Virus record (IMG/VR): IMGVR_UViG_3300050821_006280
Location: 45,559 to 109,558 of that record
Direction: 5' to 3' (one strand)
DNA from: a virus
Length of the DNA: 64,000 bases
Below the pieces are notes generated by a model that made no database searches, had not been told where the DNA came from, and saw only the letters and a list, made by a program, of their open reading frames with translations. Shown in pieces: positions 42,935 to 59,868 of the stretch. How positions within the stretch are numbered: position 1 is the stretch's first letter; every line of letters starts with the position of its first letter. The position numbers were made by a program, and so were the translations under genes.

Positions 42935-42964
42935 TTGACAAACACCCCCAGCCGACCGTAGACT
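42935..42964 (+). promoter_or_regulatory. sigma70-type promoter heading the tRNA array
   Basis: TTGACA-N18-TAGACT. Confidence 0.6.
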
Positions 42965-42970
42965 CTCTTT

Positions 42971-43044
42971 TGCGGACAAGAGAAACGGCAACTCACTTGG
43001 CTCATAACCAAGAGAATCAGGTTCAATTCCTGGGTCCGCAACCA
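42971..43044 (+). tRNA. tRNA with CAT anticodon (Met/fMet/Ile2)
   Basis: cttgg-ctCATaa-ccaag; encoded CCA. Confidence 0.8.
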
Positions 43045-43085
43045 AGGTAGTTTACAAGAGGAGTCTCGCTAGAGAGCTGAACATC

Positions 43086-43277
43086 ATGTTGACCCTGAAT
43101 TTACATAGGACCATAGGCGAAGCTGCCCTAGCCTCCGGTATCCAAACCGGACGGTCATGGTCCATCGTGGGTTCGGGATCGCTCTTTAGCTCGGATTGCG
43201 TCATGGGCCTGGAGCGCGGTCATAAGTATATCCAGACCCCGGCGACGACCACAAATCCCGGAGGCCCTTTCAGATAA
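43086..43277 (+). CDS. putative attenuator leader peptide (63 aa)
   Basis: Last codons form the 5' arm of a hairpin that competes with the downstream terminator. Confidence 0.5.
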   Translation: MLTLNLHRTIGEAALASGIQTGRSWSIVGSGSLFSSDCVMGLERGHKYIQTPATTTNPGGPFR

Positions 43278-43301
43278 ACCTGCACCAAGGGAACTGAAAG
43301 G

Positions 43302-43337
43302 GCCGCCAGGAGAGATCCTAGGCGGCTTTTTTATTTT
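43302..43337 (+). terminator. intrinsic terminator overlapped by an alternative hairpin
   Basis: gccgccagga-gaga-tcctaggcggc plus TTTTTTATTTT. Confidence 0.8.
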
Positions 43338-43361: not shown

Positions 43362-43446
43362 GCGGGCGTTGAGCAGCGTGGTGGGCTCACCTGACTGTAA
43401 ATCAGGCGCTTCGGCCGTGAAGGTTCGATTCCTTCCGTCCGCACCA
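43362..43446 (+). tRNA. tRNA-Tyr(GTA)
   Basis: cctga-ctGTAaa-tcagg; variable arm; CCA. Confidence 0.88.
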
Positions 43447-43507
43447 GGAGAAGTAAATGGATCTGATCTACGAGCGAAAACGCGGGCGAACGGAAGGGCA
43501 TACCTAC

Positions 43508-43582
43508 GCCTCCGTAGCCAAGCGGATAAGGCAGCGAACTTTTAATTCGTTGATCGCAGGTTCAAATCCTGCCGGGGGCACC
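43508..43582 (+). tRNA. tRNA-Lys(TTT)
   Basis: gcgaa-ctTTTaa-ttcgt. Confidence 0.88.
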
Positions 43583-43597
43583 TGAAGGAGAGAAGTC

Positions 43598-43828
43598 ATG
43601 AAGGTCTACATGATGCACGCAGGCGGCATGAAGGAAGTCGAGATGGAGTTCAAGAGCGCAGAGGGCGCTCTGGATCGTCTCGGTGTCCTCGGGCGTGGCG
43701 TGGAGACCATCAAGGATGACACGGGCACGGTGTTCCGTGTCGACCTTGGACGTGGCTTCTCGACAAAAAAGGGAGAAGTGATCCGTAAGACCTCGCTGGC
43801 CGCTTCTTTGTATCGGCAGGCGGGGTAG
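43598..43828 (+). CDS. hypothetical protein
   Basis: AAGGAG RBS. Confidence 0.65.
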   Translation: MKVYMMHAGGMKEVEMEFKSAEGALDRLGVLGRGVETIKDDTGTVFRVDLGRGFSTKKGEVIRKTSLAASLYRQAG

Positions 43829-43870
43829 ATAGAAATAACCGATCCCCCTCCTAACGGCCGGGGATCGTAT

Positions 43871-43942
43871 TCGGGGATAGGTCAATGGTAGACCAGCAGC
43901 CTCTGGAGCTGCGTGTTGGGGGTTCGAGTCCCTCTCCCCGAA
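43871..43942 (+). tRNA. tRNA-Gln(CTG)
   Basis: gcagc-ctCTGga-gctgc. Confidence 0.88.
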
Positions 43943-44088
43943 CTAGGGTTGTCGTGACTGTGCTGTACGCGACGTGAGTGTCTGATCTTCGGATCCAGGC
44001 CAGGGCGAGCGACAGGACGGCGAAACGTCGACAACCTATTGATAATTTAATAGTTGACGACGCGGGGGCGCACCATCGCCCCCAATAT

Positions 44089-44162
44089 GTCCCCTTAGCT
44101 TAATTGGTAGAGCGCTGCGCTGAAGACGCGGAGACCTCGGTTCGATCCCGAGGGGGGACACA
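44089..44162 (+). tRNA. tRNA-Phe(GAA)
   Basis: ctgcg-ctGAAga-cgcgg. Confidence 0.9.
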
Positions 44163-44166
44163 ATAT

Positions 44167-44298
44167 GCACCTGATGGTCAACGGTAGACCACCATCCTGA
44201 ACAGATGGCAAATCAAATACCAGGATTGCACCTCGGCTCCTTACGGAGCCAACTAGTGATCCTCACAAGCAGAGAAGGTTCGACTCCTTCCAGGTGCG
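44167..44298 (+). ncRNA. tRNA-like RNA (GAA loop) with 65-nt variable-region domain
   Basis: Acceptor gcacctg/caggtgc, D, anticodon and T arms intact; conserved insert. Confidence 0.8.
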
Positions 44299-44304
44299 CA
44301 ACAT

Positions 44305-44434
44305 GGCGCGTATGGGGATGGTCCCCAGCTCTCTTCCAAAGAGTGCAATATCCAGGATGGCACCTCGGCTTGAATAACAAGCCAACCAGCGATCCTCACA
44401 AGCTTTGTCGGTTCGATTCCGGCACGCGCCTCCA
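44305..44434 (+). ncRNA. tRNA-like RNA (TCC loop) with 62-nt variable-region domain
   Basis: Acceptor ggcgcgt/acgcgcc-TCCA; same insert. Confidence 0.8.
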
Positions 44435-44446
44435 CAGTAGCAACAT

Positions 44447-44582
44447 GGGTGAACACAGAGGGAGGGTCCCTCGCCAGCCTTGATAGCTGGAGCCAAAAGC
44501 TCCCAGAATCACACCTCGATCTCAGCAATGGGATCAACTCGTGGTTCTTACACGCCATCCGGTTCGACTCCGGGTTCATCCA
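44447..44582 (+). ncRNA. tRNA-like RNA (TGA loop) with 67-nt variable-region domain
   Basis: Acceptor gggtgaa/ttcatcc; same insert with compensatory changes. Confidence 0.8.
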
Positions 44583-44595
44583 CTGATTTGTTTTT

Positions 44596-44667
44596 GGGTG
44601 CGTAGCACAATGGAAGTGCAGTTGATTCTTAATCAATTGGTTCCGAGTTCGAGTCTCGGCGCACCCA
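44596..44667 (+). tRNA. tRNA-Lys(CTT)
   Basis: gttga-ttCTTaa-tcaat. Confidence 0.88.
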
Positions 44668-44790
44668 CTATTGAACGGGTTCGATTCCCTCCCTGGGCAC
44701 TATCCTGTGGTAAGATCAAATGGAGCGCAGATGCAGGTAATCGCCTCGACGTTCTCCAGTCTGATCTTTACCCCAGGGCTTTCTTCCGAT

Positions 44791-44879
44791 GGAAGGGTTT
44801 GCACATTGGCAAGTCAGCACCGCTCGAAACGGTGTGGGCCGGGTAACTGGCTCTGGGAGTTCGACTCTCTCCCCTTCCG
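44791..44879 (+). tRNA. tRNA-Ser(CGA), atypical D arm
   Basis: caccg-ctCGAaa-cggtg; long variable arm. Confidence 0.8.
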
Positions 44880-44905
44880 CTCTCAATACCAGCAAGGAGT
44901 ACTGC

Positions 44906-45124
44906 ATGCGGACGTGCCCCGAGTGCGCGACATGGCGTGGCGCTACGAGCGAGATCAACGTTCATAAGCGCGGGACGTACTGTCCGACATGCGGTGCTAC
45001 CAGGGCATTTGACGATCCTCTCTCAGAAGAGGATAACGAGATCCAGCACCACACCATGAAGCGGAAGTTGCGCAAGGTGGACTCTTTGAGTGAGGGAGCG
45101 CGCAAGCGTTTGCGCCTCGCATGA
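44906..45124 (+). CDS. zinc-ribbon protein
   Basis: CPEC...CPTC; AAGGAG RBS. Confidence 0.6.
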   Translation: MRTCPECATWRGATSEINVHKRGTYCPTCGATRAFDDPLSEEDNEIQHHTMKRKLRKVDSLSEGARKRLRLA

Positions 45125-45255
45125 CCAGCTGGTGGATCTTGCGCAATATCGTAATCATGTGCAAGATCCACGTTCCAACGCTGTTTCGGTGGATCGGTCC
45201 GTTTTTGTTGTAACCGGATTGATCGACCTCCGTATGGATGATACTGTGCTCTGTA

Positions 45256-45690
45256 ATGCGAGAGCTTAGTCACCACACGAAGGATAAAGGCGATCAAGGA
45301 GTCGGGTTCGTGATCGCTTCGCTTCTTTCCCACAATATCAAGATTGCTCTTCCGCTAAGTGAACATCTTCCGTTTGATCTGATTGCAATTTCTACTTCAG
45401 GACAAATGCGAAAGGTGTCAGTTAAGTATCGTGCGGAAAGAGATAGCAAAATTGAGGTAAGACCAGAAAGTAATTGGTCGAACGCAAAACAGTTCTGCAC
45501 TCGCAAATACGAGCCAGGCGAAGTCGATGCATATGCCATCTACTGTCCTAATACAAAGACGTGCTATTTTGTTCGGGAGTCAGATGCACTTCATGGAATC
45601 ATTCTTCGCATGGAACCGCCAGGCAACGGCCAGACAAAGGGCATACGAATGGCGAAGGATTTCGTAGATCCAAATTCGATATTTGTATAG
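45256..45690 (+). CDS. group I intron-associated-type PD-(D/E)xK endonuclease
   Basis: TKDKGD...PFDLIA...VSVKY...Y...VDAYAIYCP. Confidence 0.8.
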   Translation: MRELSHHTKDKGDQGVGFVIASLLSHNIKIALPLSEHLPFDLIAISTSGQMRKVSVKYRAERDSKIEVRPESNWSNAKQFCTRKYEPGEVDAYAIYCPNTKTCYFVRESDALHGIILRMEPPGNGQTKGIRMAKDFVDPNSIFV

Positions 45691-45697
45691 ATTTCAC

Positions 45698-45788
45698 GGA
45701 AGGATGGCAGAGAGGCTTAATGCGGCGGCTTGCTAAGCCGTTGTGCTGGGTAACCGGTACCGCGGGTTCAAATCCCGCTCCTTCCGCC
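45698..45788 (+). tRNA. tRNA-Ser(GCT)
   Basis: gcggc-ttGCTaa-gccgt. Confidence 0.9.
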
Positions 45789-45899
45789 GGTCAGTGAAAG
45801 GCCTAGTAGCTGACCAAATAAAACGCTCGCACCCAACGTGAGTTCCTCGGCATCGGCCGAAGCGTAAAAAGGAATCCCTGCGAAGGGTCTGGGTGTTTT

Positions 45900-45973
45900 C
45901 CGGGTGTAGCTCAGTTTGGAAGAGCATCCGCTTTGGGAGCGGAGGGTCACTGGTTCAAATCCAGTCTCCCGGA
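45900..45973 (+). tRNA. tRNA-Pro(TGG)
   Basis: tccgc-ttTGGga-gcgga. Confidence 0.9.
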
Positions 45974-45992
45974 CTACTGTAGTATTCGAGCC

Positions 45993-46214
45993 ATGAGCCG
46001 GCTTCTCTCCGTCGAAATGGCACTGACCATCTTCGTCATGAGCGCCGCCGGTTGCTATGTCGCTCTCACGCTTCGTGATCTATGGCGTCAGTACAGGCGC
46101 TATCGACGATTGAAAAAAGAAGGACCTTCCCCTGGTACCCCGGTGTACTTCGTCTCGAAGCAGGATAGAGCCAAAGACGATACCCCAGTCACGAAGAAGA
46201 CGATCAAACACTAA
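45993..46214 (+). CDS. small membrane protein
   Basis: One hydrophobic segment then basic tail. Confidence 0.5.
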   Translation: MSRLLSVEMALTIFVMSAAGCYVALTLRDLWRQYRRYRRLKKEGPSPGTPVYFVSKQDRAKDDTPVTKKTIKH

Positions 46215-46216
46215 AT

Positions 46217-46291
<75 letters not shown>

Positions 46292-46337
46292 GCTTGCAAT
46301 TCAGGACATGTAACAGTACGCTGTTTAAGATCCAAAT

Positions 46338-46413
46338 GCGGGTGTAGCTCAATTGGTAGAGCGCTAGCCTTCCAAGCTGGATGCTGTCGGTTCGAGTCCG
46401 ATCGCCCGCTCCA
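46338..46413 (+). tRNA. tRNA-Gly(TCC)
   Basis: ctagc-ctTCCaa-gctgg; TCCA. Confidence 0.92.
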
Positions 46414-46655
46414 TGAGAATCACGAGAGTAATTATCGAAGCTGAAGGCGATATTTCTGGATCAGCTTATCCGCCAACAGAAATACCGGGCTGCGGCCATG
46501 GATATCATGCCAAAGTCACGTATTCAGTCGACATGGAAACTGGCAAATGCGAAGCGGATGTTGACCTTCCAGGACTTGCAATGATTTCGAGTGACAAGTG
46601 GGAGCTTCATCTTCAAGAGGTCGCTGAACGCTGCAAGCGACTCATCAATCAGTAA
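46413..46655 (+). CDS. hypothetical protein
   Basis: Fills a tRNA spacer. Confidence 0.5.
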   Translation: MRITRVIIEAEGDISGSAYPPTEIPGCGHGYHAKVTYSVDMETGKCEADVDLPGLAMISSDKWELHLQEVAERCKRLINQ

Positions 46656-46656
46656 T

Positions 46657-46731
46657 GCCCTCATAGCTCATTTGGTAGAGCACCGCTTTCGTAAAGCGGG
46701 GGTGGTCAGTTCGATCCTGACTGGGGGCTCC
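46657..46731 (+). tRNA. tRNA-Thr(CGT)
   Basis: ccgct-ttCGTaa-agcgg. Confidence 0.9.
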
Positions 46732-46733
46732 GT

Positions 46734-46806
46734 GCCGGTGTAGCTCAATTGGCAGAGCGCCTCCCCTGTAAGGAGGATGTTGCGGGTTCGATGCCTGTCG
46801 CCGGCT
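46734..46806 (+). tRNA. tRNA-Thr(TGT)
   Basis: cctcc-ccTGTaa-ggagg. Confidence 0.88.
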
Positions 46807-46986
46807 CTAAGGAGAGAAACGATGCCGTGTTGGCCATGCGCAAAAGAGATCGAAGTTGGCAGTCTATGCGCTAGCTGCGAGCGCGGCGGAGATGATGACT
46901 GCGTACGAAAGCAGTCCATTTTCATCAAAAAACGTCGAAGCAATAAGAAGAAACCTCGGTCTCCAGTCACCGGAAAGTGATCTTAT

Positions 46987-47007
46987 TCCAGTGTAGCTCA
47001 GTCTGGA
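46987..47007 (+). pseudogene. displaced 5' fragment of tRNA-Asn
   Basis: tccagtgtagctcagtctgga vs tccagcgtaactcagttggca at 47446. Confidence 0.6.
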
Positions 47008-47038
47008 CAATTACCCAACTGTCTCGTAGTTTTGCTGC

Positions 47039-47455
47039 ATGAAAAACGATCCAAAAGCCAAAGGGGAGCGATCGGAGGCTATGGTTCTAGCGGCACTTCT
47101 GCGAAGTGGCAAGTCCGTTCTGCGACCGTTCGGTGATAACGAGCGATACGATCTAGTCATTGACGACGGCGAAAAATTCTCCAGAGTTCAATGCAAAACA
47201 GCACGTCGGGTTGGAAACGTCCTTAAATTCGACACGTGTTCATCGTATTCGCACCGCGGTGGGAAGAAAAAAGACTACCGCGGCCAGGTTGAGTTCTTTG
47301 GCATCTACAGTCCAGATGTCGATCGTGTATTCCTTGTTCCAGTCAGTCATGTTGGTACCACGAGCGCATCGCTTAGACTTACTCCGACTGTTAATGGCCA
47401 GCATGTCAACGTTAGGCTTGCTAGCGATTATGAATTGTCTTTCATTCCAGCGTAA
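47039..47455 (+). CDS. group I intron-associated-type PD-(D/E)xK endonuclease
   Basis: KAKGERSE...PFGDNERYDLVID...RVQCKTA. Confidence 0.88.
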   Translation: MKNDPKAKGERSEAMVLAALLRSGKSVLRPFGDNERYDLVIDDGEKFSRVQCKTARRVGNVLKFDTCSSYSHRGGKKKDYRGQVEFFGIYSPDVDRVFLVPVSHVGTTSASLRLTPTVNGQHVNVRLASDYELSFIPA

Positions 47456-47518
47456 CTCAGTTGGCAGAGTGCCTCACTGTTAATGAGGAGGTCACAGGTT
47501 CGAGTCCTGTCGCTGGAG
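47446..47518 (+). tRNA. tRNA-Asn(GTT)
   Basis: cctca-ctGTTaa-tgagg. Confidence 0.9.
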
Positions 47519-47650
47519 CTGTCATTCCTGAGATCGTCACCAGACGACGCCAGGCGGACGTGGTGAAAGTCCACGTGATCTCACAGCCGCTACGGGGCCG
47601 GCAGAAGCACCATCTCCCGCCGCCGTTTGCTCGGTCTTTGGGATGACAAT

Positions 47651-47724
47651 GAACCGCGCGCCGGACTGGGATGGCACTGGCCTGTTAAGCCAGGATAAGC
47701 AGGGTTCGATTCCCTGGCGGTTCG
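47651..47724 (+). tRNA. tRNA-Asn(GTT), atypical
   Basis: ctggc-ctGTTaa-gccag; no U8, short D stem. Confidence 0.7.
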
Positions 47725-47735
47725 CAGACTAGATT

Positions 47736-47810
47736 GCGAGAGTAGCTCAGCTGGTAGAGCGCATCCTTCCCAAGGATGATGTCGTGGGTTCAAATCCCAT
47801 CTCTTGCTCC
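47736..47810 (+). tRNA. tRNA-Gly(CCC)
   Basis: catcc-ttCCCaa-ggatg. Confidence 0.9.
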
Positions 47811-47907
47811 GACGGCAGTTGGTGTTTGGAGCTTCCCCCGAGCGGAGACGTTCGGAGGATGACGAGCTAGCGGAAGCAGTTCGTCGCCACCTGCCGTCCA
47901 TTTCCAC

Positions 47908-47983
47908 GGCGCCATCGTCTACTGGTTAGGACCCGGGCCTTTCACGTCCGAGAAGTGGGGTTCAATTCCCCCTGGCGCCACCA
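47908..47983 (+). tRNA. tRNA-Glu(TTC)
   Basis: cgggc-ctTTCac-gtccg; CCA. Confidence 0.9.
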
Positions 47984-47986
47984 TCT

Positions 47987-48061
47987 GGTCCCATAGTCTA
48001 ATGGTTAGGACGCCGGCCTCTCACGTCGGAATTCCGAGTTCAAATCTCGGTGGGATCACCA
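47987..48061 (+). tRNA. tRNA-Glu(CTC)
   Basis: ccggc-ctCTCac-gtcgg; CCA. Confidence 0.9.
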
Positions 48062-48066
48062 TGCAC

Positions 48067-48144
48067 GTCCCATTCGTCTAGCTGGCCTAGGACGCTGCCC
48101 TCTCAAGGCGGAAACGGCGAGTTCAAATCTCCCATGGGACACCA
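48067..48144 (+). tRNA. tRNA-Glu(CTC), second copy
   Basis: ctgcc-ctCTCaa-ggcgg; CCA. Confidence 0.85.
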
Positions 48145-48195
48145 CTTCCAAATTGATCAATGGACGGGTAGATTGCTCGATCAAAGGAGATCCAA

Positions 48196-48576
48196 ATGAT
48201 CAAACCTTCTACCCTGTTCATGATCTTGTTTCCCGTCCTGCTTTCTGGCTGCCCTGCCCACACCGATATCAAGGCAACGTTGAAGGATTTCGGTATCGGT
48301 GAGCTGGACTGTGGCAAGGCTGCTGTGGCGAATGAAATGCCGACCATCACTCCCGCAGTTGGGGCTCTCCTCGGTGGCTCCTCGCCAAATGGTCAGTCGC
48401 TTCTCGATGCACTGTTTCGCCAGGCGCCAGAGCTGATTGCGTGTTCGGTGAAGAACTTGATCGCCACCGCTGAGCACCCTGTCATCGGTCAAGAGGTCAA
48501 TCGCATGATGGCTGAGAAGAGTGCAGTCGTCGTGAAGAATGGAAAGGACGCACTTTCTCGTTGGGGTGCGCAATAG
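48196..48576 (+). CDS. putative lipoprotein
   Basis: LFMILFPVLLSGC lipobox; AAGGAG RBS. Confidence 0.7.
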   Translation: MIKPSTLFMILFPVLLSGCPAHTDIKATLKDFGIGELDCGKAAVANEMPTITPAVGALLGGSSPNGQSLLDALFRQAPELIACSVKNLIATAEHPVIGQEVNRMMAEKSAVVVKNGKDALSRWGAQ

Positions 48577-48580
48577 GCTG

Positions 48581-48817
48581 ATGTCGAAGAAAGCTCATAT
48601 ACCAGTGATTGAACGGTTGTTGTCTGGCTGGACTCATCCGCAAGGCCCGGACATGGCGTTCAATGATGCCCTTGCCGAATGGCACTCTGACAAGGTGTTC
48701 ACTGGTTCGATCTATGAGTATATGGGCTTGACCTGGGAAGAGTATCGTCGGTGGGCCGGTGATGCGAAGGCAGCCGCGGTCATCCTTCAAGAGAGACGGA
48801 GCCTACGGGCTCAATGA
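48581..48817 (+). CDS. hypothetical phage protein
   Basis: WH...IYEYMGLTWEEYRRW. Confidence 0.6.
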   Translation: MSKKAHIPVIERLLSGWTHPQGPDMAFNDALAEWHSDKVFTGSIYEYMGLTWEEYRRWAGDAKAAAVILQERRSLRAQ

Positions 48818-48856
48818 AACCTCCCCTGGGCTCTGCGAAAGCAACCTGGGGTTTTT

Positions 48857-48931
48857 GAGACCATAGCTCAGCTGGTAGAGCGTCGCCTCGACACGGCGAA
48901 GGTCGCAGGTTCGATCCCTGTTGGTCTCACC
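48857..48931 (+). tRNA. tRNA-Val(GAC)
   Basis: tcgcc-tcGACac-ggcga. Confidence 0.88.
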
Positions 48932-49101
48932 GCTCCCGTTGTCTCAATAGGTAGACCCTATGGGTTCCTGAGAGGGAATGCGTGGGTCGCGCCGAAGTAA
49001 GCAGTGGCCTATTCGCGGTAAGCCACTGACGAACGGCATCCGTAAAGACAGCCATCCTTACGCATGGTGGATGCAGGTACCCAATCCTGCCGGGAGCGCC
49101 A
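48932..49101 (+). ncRNA. 170-nt tRNA-like RNA with large internal domain
   Basis: Acceptor gctcccg/cgggagc-GCCA, D-like and T-like arms. Confidence 0.65.
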
Positions 49102-49221
49102 ATTCCGCTCGCGGAGCGTGTTAAACCGGGTTGATCACCGGCGAAGACCTAGATCCGCCCGCTACGGCAGGAGGCATCCTGCCAGGGATCAGACACGAAA
49201 GAACGTGCTGGCGAGCCAAAT

Positions 49222-49297
<76 letters not shown>

Positions 49298-49346
49298 GGA
49301 ACATAAAAGTCGATTCTGGTATTGTTGATCGCATAGGAGGTCAACG

Positions 49347-49571
49347 ATGACGACCCGAACGACCAAAGAAATGGCCGAGGAAGTCCTTGAATCGTTGAAG
49401 TCTGCTCACGAGGACAAGCCTTGGTTCAAAAAGGCAGTACTCGAAACGAGTGACTTGGGCTATGGCGTTGACCTTTGGGTTGATCGCGAGAAGTTCAGGG
49501 CTCGGACCGACAAGTTCATGCCGCCCGGTGCCATCAATCATGTCGTTGTATGCGTAATGGTGCAGGGCTAA
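49347..49571 (+). CDS. hypothetical protein
   Basis: AGGAGG RBS. Confidence 0.65.
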   Translation: MTTRTTKEMAEEVLESLKSAHEDKPWFKKAVLETSDLGYGVDLWVDREKFRARTDKFMPPGAINHVVVCVMVQG

Positions 49572-49575
49572 TCGC

Positions 49576-49651
49576 GCCCGTGTAGCTCAGCCTGGACAGA
49601 GCACCGGTTTACGAAGCCGGGTTTGCGGGGGTTCAAATCCCTCCTCGGGCA
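49576..49651 (+). tRNA. tRNA-Arg(ACG)
   Basis: ccggt-ttACGaa-gccgg. Confidence 0.88.
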
Positions 49652-49792
49652 CTTCGCCTCTAGCAATTTGAATGACAGTAGATCAGGATTGGTGTCGTGC
49701 ACCGGAGTGCTGGACCCGTAATGCGCGTTGGTGGCCACCGACGAGTCAAGCCAGCCGGGGATTGATCACGCCCGTTATCACAGTGATCATTT

Positions 49793-49867
49793 GGGCTGGT
49801 AGCTCAACGGGAGAGCAGCGGCTTTGCAAGCCGAAGGTTGTGGGTTCGATCCCCATCCGGTCCACCA
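49793..49867 (+). tRNA. tRNA-Ala(TGC)
   Basis: cggc-ttTGCaa-gccg; G3.U70; CCA. Confidence 0.9.
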
Positions 49868-49877
49868 CGAGGTCTAG

Positions 49878-50144
49878 ATGTTCGAGATGATCATCGATGG
49901 CGTGTATTGTATCTCGGGGCGAGGAATTGTTGTAACAGGCCACCCGAACCGAGAATCAATCCGTGTTGGAGAATCCGTCGAAATTTGGAATCCAGATGGA
50001 TCTGCACTCGACACGGTAATCACGGGGGTGGAGATGGTTTCCCCTCGTCGGCCGAATGACAATATCGGTCTTCTTCTGCGAACGACAGAAACCTTGAAAA
50101 CCAAGGACAACATCCACCCCGGCGCAGTCATGCGGCGCAAGTAA
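49878..50144 (+). CDS. stand-alone EF-Tu domain II-like protein
   Basis: IDGVYCISGRGIVVTG...IRVGESVEI...VITGVEM...DNIGLLLR. Confidence 0.82.
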   Translation: MFEMIIDGVYCISGRGIVVTGHPNRESIRVGESVEIWNPDGSALDTVITGVEMVSPRRPNDNIGLLLRTTETLKTKDNIHPGAVMRRK

Positions 50145-50152
50145 GGTGACCC

Positions 50153-50335
50153 ATGGAACGCAAGCTGACGATGATCCAAGTCGACCTGGAGCAGTGCCGT
50201 TGTGGTGTCGGTGCCCATGGTGATGGCAATGGACCAACCGTGTTCATCACCATGTTCCACAACGAGTTCGACGAACCGATCGTTGACGACGAAGCACGCC
50301 GTCAGATCAAGACAATCTTCCCGCAATTCGAGTAG
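50153..50335 (+). CDS. hypothetical protein
   Basis: Short ORF with RBS. Confidence 0.45.
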   Translation: MERKLTMIQVDLEQCRCGVGAHGDGNGPTVFITMFHNEFDEPIVDDEARRQIKTIFPQFE

Positions 50336-50342
50336 TTCAAAT

Positions 50343-50412
50343 GGGCAGCGGTCTGGGACCAAGCGAGTCTCCAAAACTTGCTAGCGCATGGGTTCGATCC
50401 CCCGGCGGCCCG
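50343..50412 (+). tRNA. tRNA-Trp(CCA), atypical (minimal D arm, irregular T stem)
   Basis: gcgagt-ctCCAaa-acttgc. Confidence 0.6.
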
Positions 50413-50431
50413 CTAATGGATGGAGCAGTAG

Positions 50432-50833
50432 ATGAGCGATCCATATAAGACTAAGCAAGTCATCGTGATGCGTAAAGATCTCAACATGAACCGTGGGAAA
50501 GAGATCGCCCAAGGCGCACACGCCTCAATGGCGTGGTTGTCTAATCGCATCCGCACGTCGAAGCGAGAAAATGGCCGTTATCTCGTTGAGCTTAGCGAGG
50601 CCGAAAGAGTCTGGCTCGAAGGTCAATTTGCTAAGGTGACATGCCAGGTTGACTCTGCCGCAGAACTTGAAGATCTCGTCGCCGCTGGCAAACGGCTGTA
50701 CATCGGAGCTGAGCTGATCGTCGATTCCGGTAAAACCTATTTTAAGGGTGTCAGCACGCCGACTTGCTGCGCAATCGGCCCAGGCACATCGGATCTCATC
50801 GACAGGATCACCGGGAAGCTAAAACTGTATTGA
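50432..50833 (+). CDS. pth2: peptidyl-tRNA hydrolase, Pth2 family
   Basis: KQVIVMRKDL.M.RGK.IAQ.AHA...IVDSGKT...IGP...IDRITGKLKL. Confidence 0.93.
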   Translation: MSDPYKTKQVIVMRKDLNMNRGKEIAQGAHASMAWLSNRIRTSKRENGRYLVELSEAERVWLEGQFAKVTCQVDSAAELEDLVAAGKRLYIGAELIVDSGKTYFKGVSTPTCCAIGPGTSDLIDRITGKLKLY

Positions 50834-50850
50834 TCGTGTAAGCTTGGCTT

Positions 50851-51042
50851 ATGGCCGAGTTGAACTTCATCGAGCTGCTAAAAAAGCACCTTGACGATCA
50901 TGGTCTCTCCGTAGAGGCTGCATCAGTGAAGTCTGGAATCCCACGGCTCCACATCGAAAAAGTTATCAATGGTCATGTGACATTGACCGCTTCACAGGAG
51001 GAAGAGATGGCCGCTCGAATAGGTCTGACGATCAAGTTCTAA
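50851..51042 (+). CDS. XRE-like HTH protein
   Basis: GLSVEAASVKSGIPRLHIEKVING. Confidence 0.6.
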   Translation: MAELNFIELLKKHLDDHGLSVEAASVKSGIPRLHIEKVINGHVTLTASQEEEMAARIGLTIKF

Positions 51043-51043
51043 T

Positions 51044-51118
51044 CCGCCTGTCGCCTAAGGGTTAAGGCCCGTGCCTTATAAGCGCGTGAACCGAGTTCGA
51101 GTCTCGGCGGGCGGACCA
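51044..51118 (+). tRNA. tRNA-Ile(TAT)
   Basis: cgtgc-ctTATaa-gcgcg; ACCA. Confidence 0.85.
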
Positions 51119-51158
51119 TGCTATAACACTGTCATTCGATCCGATCAGGGAGGATCCA

Positions 51159-51437
51159 ATGGCAGGCCCCATTCTGATTCTTGAAGTAGGTCATACCCGA
51201 AAGCTCATCGGCATTAACGCTGATGCCTCTGGATTTCTAGCTCCAGGACCACCAATCACCTGGGCTACAAGCAATGCTGCCGTCGCTACCGTCGACGCCA
51301 ACGGCAATGTTACCGGAGTCGGTGCTGGAACGTGCAACATCACGGCGACCAACGGTTCCCAGAGCACTGTGACAGCCACGACGGTTGCTGCGCGCAGCAC
51401 CTCACAGATCACGGTTGCTGTGGGAGACCGAACGTAG
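51159..51437 (+). CDS. Ig-like (Big_2) domain protein
   Basis: ITWATSNAAVATVDANGNVTGVGAGTCNITAT. Confidence 0.85.
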   Translation: MAGPILILEVGHTRKLIGINADASGFLAPGPPITWATSNAAVATVDANGNVTGVGAGTCNITATNGSQSTVTATTVAARSTSQITVAVGDRT

Positions 51438-51440
51438 CGC

Positions 51441-51641
51441 ATGGGTGACACTCTCAAGCTGTCGCAGCTTGACGCGCCTGACGATGGTCTTTCGGTCGAG
51501 CAGCTGGTTCATCTTGTCATCGACCCTCATGACGGTCCCCTGTGCGATCCAACAGAGCCAGTGACATCAACCAATGACCCTCACAAGATGACCTGTGAGC
51601 GATGCCGTCGAATTTGGATGACAGGTACCGCCGACGGGTAA
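51441..51641 (+). CDS. hypothetical protein
   Basis: VH...LC...TCERC. Confidence 0.5.
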   Translation: MGDTLKLSQLDAPDDGLSVEQLVHLVIDPHDGPLCDPTEPVTSTNDPHKMTCERCRRIWMTGTADG

Positions 51642-51653
51642 ACTATAGCTGCC

Positions 51654-52115
51654 ATGTCGCTCAATCTTCGTGACAAGACAGACGTGGAAGCCTGGGCCGC
51701 GTTTTGGATGCTGGCAGCAAAGATGGACATCGAGCGCAGCGGAGCATTGCTTCCTGTTGCCACGATTGTAGTTACCAGGAACATTCAGGAGATGCAGCCC
51801 GGTGGCTTCGTTCTCATCAAGGCGGATGCGCCGCTGGATGCTGATTCCAAGTTTCGCTGGGTCTCCAAGATCAAGGAGATTGTCCAAGCCGGCGCCGCTC
51901 TGGCAGTGATGACAGCTGGCGAGGCAATCCTAGCTGCTGCGGATGGTCCCGAGGCTGGCCTTGAACAGGAAGTTGTAGTTGTTGATCTTGAGCATGCGAC
52001 GCTTGGAGATCACTCATGGGTTGCCAATATCATCCGTGGCGACACGGGCGTGAAGCTGACTCCGTTCAAAACACGTCGACTTGAAGCAAGGTTTGGTAAG
52101 TTTCTGAAGCGATAA
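51654..52115 (+). CDS. hypothetical protein
   Basis: 153-aa ORF. Confidence 0.65.
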   Translation: MSLNLRDKTDVEAWAAFWMLAAKMDIERSGALLPVATIVVTRNIQEMQPGGFVLIKADAPLDADSKFRWVSKIKEIVQAGAALAVMTAGEAILAAADGPEAGLEQEVVVVDLEHATLGDHSWVANIIRGDTGVKLTPFKTRRLEARFGKFLKR

Positions 52116-52117
52116 AT

Positions 52118-52192
52118 GGCTCCTTAGCTCAACTGGCAGAGCGACCGCTTCATACGCGGTAGGTTCGGGGTTCGACTCCCCGAGGAGCCACC
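52118..52192 (+). tRNA. tRNA-Met(CAT)
   Basis: accgc-ttCATac-gcggt. Confidence 0.88.
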
Positions 52193-52286
52193 GACGCGCG
52201 GGGCAGGACCGCAGGGGGTTCCTCGCCGGGCGAAAGCCCGTAAATGTCGAGCATTCCCTCCAGCCGTGCAAGGCTGGCGTCTTCTC

Positions 52287-52359
52287 CGGGGTGTGGCGCA
52301 GTTGGTAGCGCGTTCGGTTCGGGACCGAAAGGTCGCTGGTTCAAATCCAGTCACCCCGA
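52287..52359 (+). tRNA. tRNA-Pro(CGG)
   Basis: ttcgg-ttCGGga-ccgaa. Confidence 0.92.
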
Positions 52360-52377
52360 CTAAATTGACAATCATAT

Positions 52378-52453
52378 AGTCCCTTAGCTCAGCTGGTAGA
52401 GCGCCTGTATCACACACAGGAGGTCACCCGTTCAATCCGGGTAGGGACTACCA
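52378..52453 (+). tRNA. tRNA-Val(CAC)
   Basis: cctgt-atCACac-acagg; CCA. Confidence 0.88.
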
Positions 52454-52455
52454 AT

Positions 52456-52528
52456 CGGCACCAGTCCACCCGGTGGTGAGTCGATCCCTACAAGGTCGAC
52501 GTGGCGGGTTCGATTCCCGCGGTGCCGA
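52456..52528 (+). tRNA. tRNA-Val(TAC), atypical (7-bp anticodon stem, tiny D loop)
   Basis: gtcgatc-ccTACaa-ggtcgac. Confidence 0.6.
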
Positions 52529-52534
52529 CAACAC

Positions 52535-52607
52535 GCGCATATAGCTCAACAGGTAGAGCAGCTGCCCGATTAGCGGAAGGTTGGGGGTTCGATTCCCTCT
52601 ATGCGCA
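52535..52607 (+). tRNA. tRNA-Ile(GAT)-like, atypical loop
   Basis: ctgc-ccGATta-gcgg. Confidence 0.65.
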
Positions 52608-52609
52608 CT

Positions 52610-52691
52610 GTGACGATAGGTTAAGGCTCCCGGTGGAGCCGCTGGTTTGTGGAACCAGCATCAGCGAGTTCAACTCTCGGTCGTCACCCCA
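52610..52691 (+). tRNA. tRNA-His(GTG), atypical (long acceptor-D linker)
   Basis: gctggt-ttGTGga-accagc; CCCA end. Confidence 0.65.
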
Positions 52692-52801
52692 ATACGATTT
52701 GGCAGTAGGCGAGTAAAGACGCGCTGAGGGGCGGGTACTCCCCCGCTTGGAGGACTTCAGAGATACCGGGGGCGGTCCCGGTACTGCCAATCAATTTTGC
52801 T

Positions 52802-53017
52802 TCATCTGATCATGTGGACAAAGTGCGGGTGTCCAAATACGCCGAGAAGATTGAGAAGCCAGAGCAGCATGACTACAGCCATGATGATCTTTGCTATCTG
52901 CATCATCGGCGGCGGAAGCCCAAGCATCGTGATTATCCAGTACACGACTGCTATCACAGCAAACATGAGCAGCAGTGAAATCAGGAGCGACAGCAACATT
53001 GGATCACCTCCGATCAA
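52802..53017 (-). CDS. small two-TM membrane protein
   Basis: Two hydrophobic helices joined by LPPP. Confidence 0.7.
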   Translation of the reverse strand: MIGGDPMLLSLLISLLLMFAVIAVVYWIITMLGLPPPMMQIAKIIMAVVMLLWLLNLLGVFGHPHFVHMIR

Positions 53018-53087
53018 ATGATTATCGGCACAATCATTCTATGTTTCAATGTAATTAGAATCTGACGTGTGACGCAGGGTGTAAAAC

Positions 53088-53190
53088 GGATCTGTAGCTC
53101 AGTTGGTCAGAGCGGCGAATTCTGGAAGAGATAGAAAAGTGTGACCTGGTGTGCGCCAACTGCCATCGCGAACGCACCTTCTCTAGGCAG
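53088..53190 (+). pseudogene. tRNA 5' half fused to an HNH endonuclease remnant
   Basis: ggatctgtagctcagttggtcagagcggc, then a frame reading RILEEIEKCDLVCANCHRERT. Confidence 0.65.
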
Positions 53191-53194
53191 TTCT

Positions 53195-53267
53195 CCGCTC
53201 ATAGCTCAAAGGCAGAGCAATCGGCTGATAACCGATAGACGCAAGTTCGATCCTTGCTGGGCGGACC
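53195..53267 (+). tRNA. tRNA-Ile(GAT)
   Basis: atcgg-ctGATaa-ccgat. Confidence 0.9.
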
Positions 53268-53317
53268 GCTAGTTCAAGTCTAGCCAGATCCACTACAATA
53301 TCGGTTGGTGCTGGGGC

Positions 53318-53764
53318 TTAGACGCCGGTGGTTGCAGGCTGATCGTGGGTGTCGACAGGAGCGGCTGGCTGCTCTGCGGCTGCGGCTGGGGCGGCAGGAG
53401 CAGCCGTCGCAACAGGAGCAGCGGGAGCAGGCGCTGGTGCTGGTGCTGGCGGCGCAACAGGCTGAGCGACTGGCGAATCGAACGAGAGATCCAGCTCCGA
53501 ATCATCGCTCACAGTCACGTGCACATGGATCACGTGGGTGAGCGGACCGCAGACGACAGTGACATCTGCATTCCCAGGGTTCCCAGCCACCATGGTGCAG
53601 GCGCGCTTCGTGGTGTCCGCAGAATCGCAGCTGATCGCGACGATGGCAGAATCCGACGTGCTCCAGGTGGCGACAGTTGTTGTATCCACGACTCCCTTCG
53701 CATCCTTGGCAAGGATGCGGACGATCTGTTGCTGTTCGTCACTGAGAACTGTATTGAATTCCAT
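53318..53764 (-). CDS. Ig-like domain protein with Pro/Ala-rich tail
   Basis: GGAGGAG RBS; ATWSTSDSAIVAI...GNADVTV. Confidence 0.65.
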   Translation of the reverse strand: MEFNTVLSDEQQQIVRILAKDAKGVVDTTTVATWSTSDSAIVAISCDSADTTKRACTMVAGNPGNADVTVVCGPLTHVIHVHVTVSDDSELDLSFDSPVAQPVAPPAPAPAPAPAAPVATAAPAAPAAAAEQPAAPVDTHDQPATTGV

Positions 53765-53961
53765 GACTCCTCCTGTTCCGTTGATAGGTGATCCGACCCA
53801 GACTTCGAGCTGGGATGGGACTTGATGGTGCCGGTGCCTGAACATCGACATGATCTTGATCCAGCACATTTGATCGGATCAGAAATATACCTGGATTATC
53901 AAAGAACGTCTTGCAAAAGGATCGATACGAGAATTACCGCGCAGACGCTTGCGTGGGATAT

Positions 53962-54039
53962 GGTGGGTGTAGCTCAATTGGTTAGAGCACCGGATTGTGG
54001 ATCCGGGGGTTGCGGGTTCAAGTCCCGTCACTCACCCCA
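53962..54039 (+). tRNA. tRNA-His(GTG)
   Basis: ccgga-ttGTGga-tccgg; G-1, CCCA. Confidence 0.93.
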
Positions 54040-54076
54040 TATGAAAGCTTGGTTACCGTCGTGGTAAGATCAAAGC

Positions 54077-54634
54077 ATGAAGAACGACGAAGTAACTGAT
54101 CAAGTTAAAAGGCCGAAGCAACCATCCCCTCAGTGGCTTGTCACTGCGGTGTTCGGGCTTCTCTCTGCTGTTGCGGCGAGTCTGCCTGCGGCATATTTCA
54201 GCTACCGATCAGCAAAGGTCGAAGCCGAATCAAAGACTTCGCAAGTAAAGGCCGAGGCTGATATCGGGTATCAGACCCTGGTCAAAGCTGTTGCGAAGCA
54301 TGAAGAACACGATGCTCAGCAAGACCATTGGATCTCTCGGATCGAAGGTCATGTTGCTGCCATTGAGCAGGCGCTGACGCGAGTAACGATTGTGAGCAGC
54401 CACAGGACAATTCCGGCTGAAAGCGAGGATGGAGCTTCCGAGGTCGAAGGTGGCTCTCCGCCGCCTCCCAAGAAGAAGCCGAAGGCGATGAAATTGAAGT
54501 TTAATTACACTCCACCTGCCCCCATCGCTGCACAAGGCCATGAATACAAACCGGAGGTTCTGCCCTCGACGCTGGACAAAGCCGTTACGAATTTCGGTGA
54601 TTCGAGCATTAAGCGGGCAGCGACCGCGAAGTAA
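54077..54634 (+). CDS. membrane-anchored coiled-coil protein
   Basis: N-terminal TM segment then helical region. Confidence 0.65.
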   Translation: MKNDEVTDQVKRPKQPSPQWLVTAVFGLLSAVAASLPAAYFSYRSAKVEAESKTSQVKAEADIGYQTLVKAVAKHEEHDAQQDHWISRIEGHVAAIEQALTRVTIVSSHRTIPAESEDGASEVEGGSPPPPKKKPKAMKLKFNYTPPAPIAAQGHEYKPEVLPSTLDKAVTNFGDSSIKRAATAK

Positions 54635-54638
54635 TACC

Positions 54639-54719
54639 GCCCGGGTGGCGTAATGGTAGCCGCAGCCCACTTAAAACGGGCCGTCGCAAGACGTGCGAGT
54701 TCGATTCTCGCCCTGGGCA
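54639..54719 (+). tRNA. tRNA-Leu(TAA)
   Basis: ctTAAaa loop; variable arm. Confidence 0.88.
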
Positions 54720-54777
54720 CAGTTTCCTCTTTCAGCTTGTTTTCCTGATCAAGAAAATGGTCGATTTTAGGAAACAC

Positions 54778-54852
54778 CGGCGTGTGGCGCAGCCTGGTTA
54801 GCGCACCAGTCTGGGGGACTGGGGGTCGGAGGTTCAAATCCTTCCACGCCGA
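54778..54852 (+). tRNA. tRNA-Pro(GGG)
   Basis: ccagt-ctGGGgg-actgg. Confidence 0.92.
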
Positions 54853-54901
54853 CGGAGGAGCACCGATACTTACTCCGACCAATTTGATATGATGGCTTCC
54901 A

Positions 54902-55432
54902 ATGGAAGCGAATCCGATCAAGTGCGGCTGTGGTGAAACCGACGAAAGACAGTTCTACGTTCGGATGGTAAATGGCAGCAAAGCAATCAAATCGATATGC
55001 AAGTTATGTGAAAACAAACGTCGATGGCCACGGCAGAAGAAACGTGGAGAAACCTACACCAAGTATAATAAGGCATACGATCATAAGGTTTCTGAGTGGC
55101 GGCGGAGCGGTGTAGATCAAGACCGATGGATATGGCGGGATACGAGGGGATGGGACCGTAAGCACGGATTTGAACCGGAGCTGACAAGGGAAGAGATCCG
55201 CGAGCTAATCGCTTCGGGATGTCTCTACTGCGGCGAAACGAATCTGCGCATGACGCTTGATCGTATCGACAACAGCAAGGGACACTGTCGAGGAAACGTG
55301 AACCCGGCTTGCATAAGGTGCAATTACGCGCGTAGGGCAATGCCGTATGAAGCATGGCTTTGCCTTCTGCCGGGGCTAAAGGAGGCGCGAGAAAAAAGAC
55401 TGTTCGGGGATTGGACAGGACGCTGTAGATGA
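54902..55432 (+). CDS. HNH-like (His-Me finger) endonuclease
   Basis: CLYCG...TLDRIDNSKGH..GNV.PAC.RCN. Confidence 0.8.
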   Translation: MEANPIKCGCGETDERQFYVRMVNGSKAIKSICKLCENKRRWPRQKKRGETYTKYNKAYDHKVSEWRRSGVDQDRWIWRDTRGWDRKHGFEPELTREEIRELIASGCLYCGETNLRMTLDRIDNSKGHCRGNVNPACIRCNYARRAMPYEAWLCLLPGLKEAREKRLFGDWTGRCR

Positions 55433-55495
55433 CAAATCCTCTCACGCCGACCTGGACAATCACGGATTGCGATAGGACGATGATCATCGTAATGA

Positions 55496-55577
55496 GGTCC
55501 CCTGGCGGAACTGGCAGACGCGCTGGACTTAGGATCCAGTGCCGAAAGGCGTGGGGGTTCGATTCCCCCGGGGACTA
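55496..55577 (+). tRNA. tRNA-Leu(TAG)
   Basis: ctgga-ctTAGga-tccag. Confidence 0.92.
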
Positions 55578-55580
55578 CTA

Positions 55581-55868
55581 ATGGATCAATCGGAAGACGA
55601 TTCGGTCGATCTGTCTTCAAAGGAAGGACGCTTTCGATACTGCACCAGCAAAATCGAAGTAGCTGTCCGCGAGCTTGGCCAGGAAGGGCTAGAAGCCACG
55701 GATATTTTCGATGCCTTAGCTGGGCTGGTCGTCTCATCGTTTGTGATGAACGATGTACCGAAAGAACAATCACTCCAATATATCAGCGAGATGTTTGATC
55801 GTGCATGGGATCAGGCCGATACAGCTGAGCTGATCATGCATGACCGCGACAGAAACGAGGAATCATAG
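55581..55868 (+). CDS. hypothetical protein
   Basis: ORF after the tRNA. Confidence 0.55.
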   Translation: MDQSEDDSVDLSSKEGRFRYCTSKIEVAVRELGQEGLEATDIFDALAGLVVSSFVMNDVPKEQSLQYISEMFDRAWDQADTAELIMHDRDRNEES

Positions 55869-55957
55869 TGATCTTTGATCTCGTAGACTTCATTGTTGAG
55901 CTTCTTGGAGATGTGGTTCTCATGCTTTTTGGTGTTGATTCAGACGATTAGTAATAT

Positions 55958-55991
55958 GCGGGTGTGGCGGATCTGGTAGACGCGCTAGCTT
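55958..55991 (+). pseudogene. displaced 5' half of tRNA-Leu
   Basis: gcgggtgtggcggatctggtagacgcgctagctt ends at the anticodon loop. Confidence 0.7.
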
Positions 55992-56004
55992 TGTTGGGAT
56001 ACGG

Positions 56005-56412
56005 ATGAAGACAGAACGACACAGAACGCCTTGGTTTCAAAAGGACGGATACTGGGCGTGCACTGCGTATTATGTCGACGGCACTCGCACCACGATTTAT
56101 CAGCACCGAGAAGTGCTTGAGCATAAGCTTGGCAGAACTATTCGAGATGGCTATGTTGCTCATCACAAAGATGAAAACAGATCAAACAACAATCCAGATA
56201 ATCTCGAAGAGAAATTCGAGCCCGATCATTGTAGGGATCATCGTCCGCCAGCCGAAATAATTGAGATTATCTGTCCTGAGTGCGGACAAACGAAGAAAAA
56301 GATCGCTCGCCTCGTTAGGCATAACCAGAAACAGGGAAAGGAAGGACCGTTCTGCGATAGGCGTTGCGCCGGAAGATGGAATGCGAAGAAACAACATGCT
56401 CGGGTGGCGTAA
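56005..56412 (+). CDS. HNH homing endonuclease
   Basis: YQHREVLE..LGR...VAHHKDENRSNNNPDNL; CPEC...FCDRRC. Confidence 0.85.
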   Translation: MKTERHRTPWFQKDGYWACTAYYVDGTRTTIYQHREVLEHKLGRTIRDGYVAHHKDENRSNNNPDNLEEKFEPDHCRDHRPPAEIIEIICPECGQTKKKIARLVRHNQKQGKEGPFCDRRCAGRWNAKKQHARVA

Positions 56413-56480
56413 TTGGTAGCCGCGCTAGATCGAGGGTCTAGTGGTCTCTGACCGTGCGGGTTCGACTCCCGCCCCGAGTA
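56398..56480 (+). tRNA. tRNA-Leu(GAG)
   Basis: ctaga-tcGAGgg-tctag. Confidence 0.88.
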
Positions 56481-56482
56481 CT

Positions 56483-57067: not shown

Positions 57068-57083
57068 TACACTCTTCTAACAA

Positions 57084-57171
57084 GCCGACGTGGTGGATTC
57101 TGGTAGACACGCCGTATTCAGAGTGCGGTGAGCGAAAGCTCGGGCAGGTTCGATTCCTGTCGTCGGCACCA
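57084..57171 (+). tRNA. tRNA-Leu(CAG)
   Basis: ccgta-ttCAGag-tgcgg; CCA. Confidence 0.9.
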
Positions 57172-57199
57172 CTGACCCAATAGGTCAGGCAGTGAGCAG

Positions 57200-57907: not shown

Positions 57908-58081
57908 GTGATGATTGGAAAAGACCGAAATCGAACAGGCCTTTGAAGAGATGATCAATAAGATCGACCTCGAAAAGGAGCTGAGATTCATCTTCTTCGG
58001 CGGGTTTGAGACGTATGAAGACTACGAGAAGTACGGAGACAGTTTCATAGAAATCGCAACAGATAGTGGACCAAGACAACT

Positions 58082-58167
58082 GCCCTGGTGGCGTAATAGG
58101 TAGCCGCAGCAGGCTCAAACCCTGCCGCTCCTTAGTGGGCGTGCCGGTTCGACTCCGGCCCAGGGCA
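58082..58167 (+). tRNA. tRNA-Leu(CAA)
   Basis: gcagg-ctCAAac-cctgc. Confidence 0.88.
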
Positions 58168-59861: not shown

Positions 59862-59868
59862 CTGCTAT

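Follow-up and report, generated by a model that had tools for sequence, protein, structure and literature searches.

A candidate translation-coupled attenuator ahead of the tRNA gene array of an uncultivated soil virus

The DNA analysed (64,000 nucleotides, hereafter the window) covers positions 45,559 to 109,558 of IMG/VR record IMGVR_UViG_3300050821_006280, i.e. the right-hand 64 kb of the 109,558-bp contig of an uncultivated virus that is 68% complete by CheckV and that occurs in soil metagenomes. From position 42971 of the window onwards, the plus strand carries 43 tRNA genes, a transfer-messenger RNA (tmRNA) gene, a gene for Pth2, and several PD-(D/E)XK and HNH endonuclease genes. The element described here lies at the head of this array. 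It comprises a promoter, a tRNA-Met gene, an open reading frame (ORF) of 63 codons (named ORF63), a hairpin formed by the end of ORF63 and the sequence behind it (hairpin A), and an intrinsic terminator; the remaining tRNAs follow. A first-pass annotation of the same DNA had reported a 63-codon ORF after a promoter and the first tRNA, and this was confirmed; the features are summarized in Table 1. We propose, with a probability of about 0.4, that the element acts as a transcription attenuator of the ribosome-mediated type known from bmrB and trpL; at the head of a tRNA/tmRNA/Pth2 block, this would be a new setting for such a regulator.

Table 1. Predicted features at the head of the tRNA array (window positions)
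Feature	Position	Strand	Remarks
Sigma70-type promoter	42935..42964	+	TTGACA-18-TAGACT, 10/12; promoter scan of the contig
tRNA-Met (CAU)	42971..43044	+	ARAGORN; 54.6 bits with the Rfam tRNA model
Weak Shine-Dalgarno-like AGAGAG	43071..43076	+	9 nt 5' of the ATG; predicted pairing with 43182-43191 in the whole-spacer fold
ORF63, candidate leader ORF	43086..43277	+	63 codons, TAA stop, all 20 amino acids
Possible anti-antiterminator	43237..43264	+	CCCCGG (43237-42) with CCGGaGG (43258-64); local fold only
Hairpin A, candidate antiterminator	43256..43311	+	perfect 11-bp core 43263-73 / 43294-304; extended form 16/18 paired
Intrinsic terminator	43302..43337	+	stem 43302-43326, -17.5 kcal/mol; T-tract 43327-43337, TTTTTTATTT
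Putatively gated downstream block	43362..62996	+	41 tRNAs, tmRNA 60680-61077, Pth2 50432-50833, homing endonucleases

The promoter is one of two plus-strand matches of at least 10/12 in the 109.6-kb contig, the other being located at 28415 at the head of the structural operon, and the sigma70-type scan found no plus-strand promoter of at least 10/12 between 43337 and 62000. In a scan of both strands, the terminator was by far the strongest on the plus strand of the array (others, -9 to -12 kcal/mol), which bears out the earlier description of a strong terminator lying before the remaining tRNAs; it sits about 365-370 nt after the promoter. Since a strong terminator comes directly after the sole recognisable promoter of the 19-kb block, the array must be transcribed either by read-through or from phage promoters that were not recognised. 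A search for repeated motifs in the array returned tRNA segments only, and no repeated non-tRNA motif. The layout of promoter, terminator and a 19-kb array without evident promoter fits a gate. The tRNA-Met gene begins about 7 nt past the -10 hexamer (42964-42971), and the primary transcript may start at, or 1-2 bases from, the mature 5' end of tRNA-Met, in which case RNase P would have hardly any 5' leader to remove.

The same layout, in which a long operon without promoters of its own is preceded by a strong promoter and a short transcript that terminates, would also be obtained if the terminator were a timing gate opened by a trans-acting phage factor, either as in PR'-6S RNA-tR' of phage lambda with Q or by processive antitermination of the N/put type; the short transcript would then be constitutive, and ORF63 uninvolved. 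The lambda gate is well known for its strong promoter, its short terminated transcript and a long operon that needs read-through; it differs in that it depends on a protein that binds DNA and on promoter-proximal pausing, and involves no leader ORF. The initially transcribed region of the array is a tRNA. We consider a trans-acting factor clearly improbable for the array, because such a gate leaves unexplained a conserved ORF with its stop codon inside a competing hairpin. The three Pfam families of Q antiterminators (PF06530, PF03589 and PF06323) gave no match in the contig, which is 68% complete, although PF06323 matched no control genome either.

The proposed attenuator draws on the pairing between the end of ORF63 and the sequence overlapping the terminator. 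As had been reported, GGCCCTTTCAG (43263-43273) perfectly complements CTGAAAGGGCC (43294-43304) over 11 bp; the last four codons of ORF63 constitute the left arm of hairpin A, and the TAA (43275-77) lies within its loop. Folding energies are -22.8 kcal/mol for the core and -30.9 kcal/mol for the extended form (43256-73 / 43294-311). Perfect stems of at least 11 bp with a loop of 3-30 nt were found at six loci in the 109.6-kb contig, hairpin A among them, and represent 12 windows of 11 bases compared to 1.3 +/- 1.8 in Markov resamples; hairpin A is thus not a chance feature. The strand common to hairpin A and the terminator is 43302-04 for the perfect stem and 43302-43311, the terminator's entire left arm, for the extended stem. 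A previous caveat that the overlap was only 3-4 nt therefore applies to the perfect stem (3 nt) but not to the extended one (10 nt).

Three alternative states were calculated to lie within 1 kcal/mol of one another: the extended hairpin A alone; hairpin A (-22.8) together with a 7-bp truncated terminator (-8.4) that ends 3 nt before the U-tract, at -31.2 kcal/mol; and a truncated hairpin A (-12.8) together with the full terminator (-17.5), at -30.3 kcal/mol. For the nascent RNA, folded as far as the 3' end of the terminator stem, a pairing probability was then read for the three G-C pairs adjoining the U-tract (basal pairs). With the ORF wholly free, or with a ribosome covering up to 43262, this probability was 0.02-0.17; once 43260-43288 was masked, mimicking a ribosome on the TAA, it rose to 0.88-1.0. 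Intermediate values (0.23-0.69) were obtained in the local context 43230-43326, in which CCCCGG (43237-42) is paired with 43258-64. The predicted folding response is that of a 2:3 / 3:4 attenuator, and the attenuator geometry suggested in the first-pass annotation is present in these models in a stronger form than had been claimed. The pairing of 43237-42 with 43258-64 is predicted in the fold of 43230-43326 only and is absent from whole-ORF folds; as a 1:2 anti-antiterminator it is weak and doubtful, and so an untranslated ORF63 leader may read through rather than terminate. A further pairing, of 8 bp, perfect and G+C-rich (GACCCCGG / CCGGGGTC; 43235-43242 / 43338-43345), encloses hairpin A, the terminator and the T-tract and is possible in the read-through RNA only; it may be a processing stem, or due to chance.

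In classical attenuation, segment 2 is covered once the ribosome has reached the stop codon, and the terminator forms. For the ORF63 element, transcription from the promoter at 42935 would yield tRNA-Met and then the ORF63 leader, in which hairpin A (43256-43311) and the terminator (43302-43326) would contend for strand 43302-43311. A ribosome that keeps up with the polymerase would, when positioned at the TAA in the loop, cover the left arm of hairpin A, so that the full terminator would form and the transcript would end after about 365 nt. If translation of ORF63 lagged or stalled, hairpin A would form first and would remove the three G-C pairs by the U-tract, or the whole left arm, from the terminator; polymerase would continue past the weakened terminator into the tRNA genes. 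We infer that ORF63 is translated, that coupling sets the outcome, and that slow translation, e.g. with depleted or cleaved tRNAs, is the signal; a stall at any codon would be expected to open the gate.

A weak hint as to the outcome in the field came from a soil metatranscriptome library (X3), which contained a 335-nt contig that exactly matches 42986-43320 and stops in the terminator, with no further match beyond it, whereas a contig of a DNA run (X2; 43164-43554) crosses the terminator. The X3 contig is no more than consistent with termination as the common outcome. In X2, the otherwise identical contigs leave a gap at 42969-43163 (depth 3), which may reflect either low depth or a strain variant over tRNA-Met and the 5' half of the ORF. 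Runs X5 and X7 provided short tRNA-like pieces from other organisms, and no diverged copy of the leader was seen in them.

Relatives of ORF63 were identified in protein databases by a word-based search and two profile searches, the first of which was exhaustive. The family comprises seven sequences (ORF63 and six others) from five lineages, with 63-65 amino acids and 47-66% identity: P0002 (63 aa, 64% identity to ORF63; contig of 902 bp), P0006 (65 aa; contig of 14,682 bp), P0008 (65 aa, 47% identity; contig of 2,348 bp), and the group of P0010, P0011 and P0012 (64-65 aa, about 60-65% identity), which occurs on eight contigs, among them those of 116,506 bp (P0010, the longest), 3,688 bp (P0011) and 59,191 bp (P0012). 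Two further candidates of the profile search, P0007 and P0009, were repetitive, unrelated proteins and were discarded, and no match to the family was found in scans of viral contigs and genome contigs or by tblastn against INPHARED. All seven sequences have a common start column (M.T), their ends differ by no more than about one codon, and the several indels between them are all in frame; no truncated or fragmentary matches appeared in the searches, with an ascertainment bias in that protein databases show open frames only. The open frame is thus kept in five lineages, as the initial proposal of a leader ORF had presupposed. Since a conserved start and in-frame indels are hard to obtain without translation, ORF63 is probably translated.

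These data also bear on an alternative in which the spacer between tRNA-Met and the array yields a structured RNA without coding function, either a small RNA or a leader to which a protein or ligand binds; this RNA would have the terminator as its own 3' end, and the open frame would be incidental. A folding energy of -123.9 kcal/mol (z = -5.44) was calculated for the spacer as a whole (43045-43340), and the coding score of ORF63 is low, as would be expected of such an RNA. In addition, the most conserved codons (MGLE and IQ[T/A]P) form the arms of a predicted stem of 8-9 bp at 43197-43250 (GGGCCTGGA / TCCAGACCC), and the common Thr-to-Ala change, if from ACC to GCC, would turn the sole C-A mismatch of this stem into a C-G pair. 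The ORF body alone, however, has a z of -1.9 to -2.9, which is within the range of 25 coding windows of the phage (mean -0.74, sd 1.11, minimum -2.7), so that the extreme value for the spacer derives from the 3' hairpins, and the ORF body as a structured RNA is unsupported. A cmscan of 42800-43700 against Rfam at E <= 10 detected tRNAs and chance sub-threshold matches only (RcsR1 and ctRNA, far below threshold). The frame and start of ORF63 are kept through several indels, which would be unlikely without translation (protein databases showing open frames only). We regard a non-coding spacer as very improbable.

By the count of the first-pass annotation, ORF63 uses 43 different codons and every one of the 20 amino acids. 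This count is correct, as is the accompanying caution that a random sequence would give about 40: stop-free random frames of the same composition have 39.2 +/- 2.4 distinct codons (P(>=43) = 0.083), and the joint probability of 43 codons and all 20 amino acids is 0.014, post hoc for ORF63. When the peptide is held fixed and its codons are drawn by the phage's usage, 39.9 +/- 2.2 distinct codons are expected, with P(>=43) = 0.12 (0.29 for uniform usage). The codon choice in ORF63 is also ordinary for the phage, with three rare codons and a mean ln RSCU (relative synonymous codon usage) at the 12th percentile. Codon sampling at the synonymous level, as had been suggested, was rejected on these grounds (P = 0.12-0.29 given the peptide), and the codon diversity stems from the amino-acid composition.

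At the amino-acid level, the expectation that relatives would keep the diversity was set beforehand and held true: each of the seven family sequences contains all 20 amino acids in 63-65 residues. For a null model, residues identical to ORF63 were kept and the others were redrawn from a generic composition or from that of the family's variable columns. The chance of holding all 20 amino acids was then 0.36-0.40 for P0002, 0.24-0.26 for P0012, 0.08-0.17 for P0006, and 0.26 for P0008. Taken jointly, retention has a probability of 0.002-0.005 for a star tree and 0.0002-0.001 for a chain; given a simple null model and a product that is somewhat too favourable owing to common descent, we treat it as about 10^-3 to 10^-2. 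The lone Cys varies in position between three columns, with SDC for three lineages, VCA for P0002 and SCL for P0010-12, and His, Tyr and Trp shift as well. Retention of all 20 amino acids across the family beyond chance is suggested by these comparisons.

A more far-reaching reading, and a sub-case of the attenuator, is that the ORF63 family is a translation-speed meter selected to contain every amino acid, such that shortage or cleavage of almost any host tRNA would delay the ribosome and cause the terminator to fail. We hold this to be rather unlikely. Its triggers would be anticodon nucleases, PARIS, retron or Schlafen-type defences, or starvation, and the phage tRNAs, tmRNA and Pth2 would be switched on only when needed, a scenario that we put forward with equal reserve.

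The ORF63 peptide itself gave no match in Pfam, PHROG, PDB or the ESM Atlas, and no fold was predicted for it (ESM predicted local distance difference test, pLDDT, 0.31; AlphaFold 2 pLDDT 49-51 with two or seven sequences); as a fold, the peptide looks dispensable. The family shows conserved motifs (GRSWS.V, LF..D, MGL..ER, IQ.PAT and GGPF), and an expectation that conserved diversity would go together with a divergent peptide was not borne out. The C-terminus of P0012 is HPGGPFR, whereas its siblings P0010 and P0011 (>90% identical), on five of the eight contigs of this lineage, end in HPRRPV. PGGP and PRRP are two readings, one base apart, of CCCGGAGGCCC, as inferred by back-translation, and the same letters form the left arm of hairpin A in ORF63. 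This argues that the C-terminal motif may be conserved as RNA rather than as protein.

The same observations have to be set against a plainer explanation, namely that ORF63 is an ordinary small early gene, perhaps for a disordered protein, on a short host-promoter transcript with tRNA-Met, and that hairpin A and the terminator serve to end and stabilise this transcript, the array being expressed from unrecognised promoters or by constitutive leak-through. Recognisable motifs conserved over five lineages would be expected in this case, as would the ordinary synonymous codon use; small ORFs are common in the array (e.g. 43598-43828, with a good ribosome-binding site), both hairpins coexist in the local minimum-energy fold, and the contig from the RNA library ends at the terminator. 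Yet no fold or family was detected, and the C-terminus tolerates a frameshift in five of the eight contigs of one lineage. Moreover, the hairpins overlap on one strand with near-equal energy rather than standing apart, neither a promoter of at least 10/12 nor a repeated non-tRNA motif was found downstream, and the retention of all 20 amino acids is left unexplained. An ordinary small gene is the main competing reading of the locus, though in our view a somewhat doubtful one.

Several findings weigh against the attenuator proposed here. The Shine-Dalgarno sequence is weak, as had been cautioned at the outset: only AGAGAG is present, and no GGAG, GAGG or AGGA, the motifs common before this phage's genes, occurs 3-12 nt 5' of the ATG. 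The coding score of ORF63 is low (0.03 bits/codon); real genes score 0.27 +/- 0.13, with 3% of them below ORF63, and spurious frames score -0.11 +/- 0.15, with 19% above it. Its GC content by codon position is atypical, so that ORF63 is a weak case when judged by its own sequence. Its relatives were compared as protein sequences, and the conserved motifs (GRSWS, MGL..ER, IQ.PAT) are those to be expected of a functional small protein. Unlike classical leaders, ORF63 lacks a stretch of codons of a single kind; four Thr codons are found within TPATTT near the end. The minimum-energy local fold retains both hairpins, with a 7-bp terminator that may keep some of its activity. Phage-specific promoters may lie within the array, the scan having covered the sigma70 type only. 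Finally, the RNA contig derives from a single low-depth run (depth 3-6.5); contigs cannot show RNA ends, and DNA carry-over is uncontrolled.

The closest known counterpart of the proposed attenuator is bmrB of Bacillus subtilis, a leader ORF of 53 codons with a terminator, an antiterminator and an anti-antiterminator, at which translation slowed by antibiotics or by rare codons promotes the antiterminator and read-through, the latter being reduced by codon optimisation (PMC4191407). Both elements have a long leader ORF (53 codons, and 63 in the candidate) with alternative terminator and antiterminator stems at its 3' end, and in bmrB the speed of translation in general is sensed through the ribosome. 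The two have no sequence similarity, however, and bmrB gates a bacterial drug-efflux pump (bmrBCD) in response to ribosome-targeting antibiotics, whereas the ORF63 element is located in a phage, after a tRNA and before a tRNA/tmRNA/Pth2 block that it would gate.

With the classical attenuators (trpL, hisL, thrL, leuL, and pheL; for pheL see PMC3082878) the element shares a promoter-proximal terminator, a leader ORF, and the logic of 2:3 versus 3:4 pairing. Classical leaders comprise 14-32 codons with a run of the sensed codon, whereas the ORF63 family has 63-65 codons with all 20 amino acids and no run. T-box riboswitches have a related purpose, in that the state of a tRNA is sensed and a terminator is controlled, but they bind one specific tRNA and need no ORF; a T-box was excluded for the locus, as there is no Rfam match to a T-box or other cis-regulatory element in 42800-43700. 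In Sinorhizobium, the terminated attenuator transcript rnTrpL and the leader peptide peTrpL act in trans (PMC6614838, PMC7968998). They have no homology to ORF63; an abundant short transcript at the ORF63 locus could likewise act in trans.

Phage tRNA arrays are now regarded as a means of countering host defences that act by tRNA cleavage or depletion (PMC10264068, PMC11464382, PMC11555353). The mechanisms by which such arrays are switched on are largely unknown, and literature searches found no case of leader-peptide control of a phage tRNA array. An attenuator at this locus would be the first example of a phage that senses the host's translation state in cis and answers with its own translation kit, and would extend leader-peptide attenuation from a single amino acid or drug to overall decoding speed; as a speed meter, it would represent an inducible counter-defence. 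If ORF63 is a small gene, the locus contains a small orphan gene with a terminator, which is an ordinary finding.

Other phage tRNA arrays were inspected for the same layout, as had been proposed in the first-pass annotation. No ORF63 homologue was found in 35 Pth2-bearing phage loci or in ten of their full records, and in eight arrays with their start or bulk within the locus, strong terminators inside the array were rare. A comparable layout was observed in one unrelated, AT-rich phage (L027; IMGVR_UViG_3300043399_000877). It has a promoter at 1541-69, a 32-codon ORF at 1610-1708, a strong terminator at 1737-69, i.e. about 195 nt before the array, and the array from 1964; the leader has a z of -3.96, and CUGGAGG near the end of the ORF could pair with the left arm of the terminator. 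As a single case, it is an anecdote.

The remainder of the window is organised as follows. The left part of the minus strand encodes replication genes (RecA-like, DnaB-like, Toprim primase and Dam methylase), and the structural operon, which includes a gene for a 3,144-aa protein, runs on the plus strand from about 28.4 kb. A blastn search of 42400-44200 against phages returned matches to tRNA genes only, and the 154-aa protein encoded upstream of the array is without relative in the phage collection or the viral contigs. A homologue of this protein is encoded on contig Ga0210397_10001404 (L002:3228-4700), followed by a long ORF of repeated units of about 60 nt (..SETV.L.ESL..) and with no tRNA array; the junction of the 154-aa gene with the array is thus not conserved, the homologue being non-syntenic.

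Within the array, two PD-(D/E)XK and three HNH endonuclease genes are scattered between the tRNAs (45238-45690, 47039-47455, 56005-56412, 58192-58836 and 62140-62724). A genuine small gene is probably represented by the 76-aa ORF at 43598-43828, which has a good ribosome-binding site (GGAGAG, 6 nt 5' of the ATG) but matches neither Pfam nor PHROG families. Between this ORF and a tRNA-Gln gene, a strong terminator-like hairpin (-18.5 kcal/mol, followed by TTATTTCT) is predicted on the minus strand at 43831-43867; it is directed against the array and may block antisense transcription from minus-strand promoters at 53049 and 62922.

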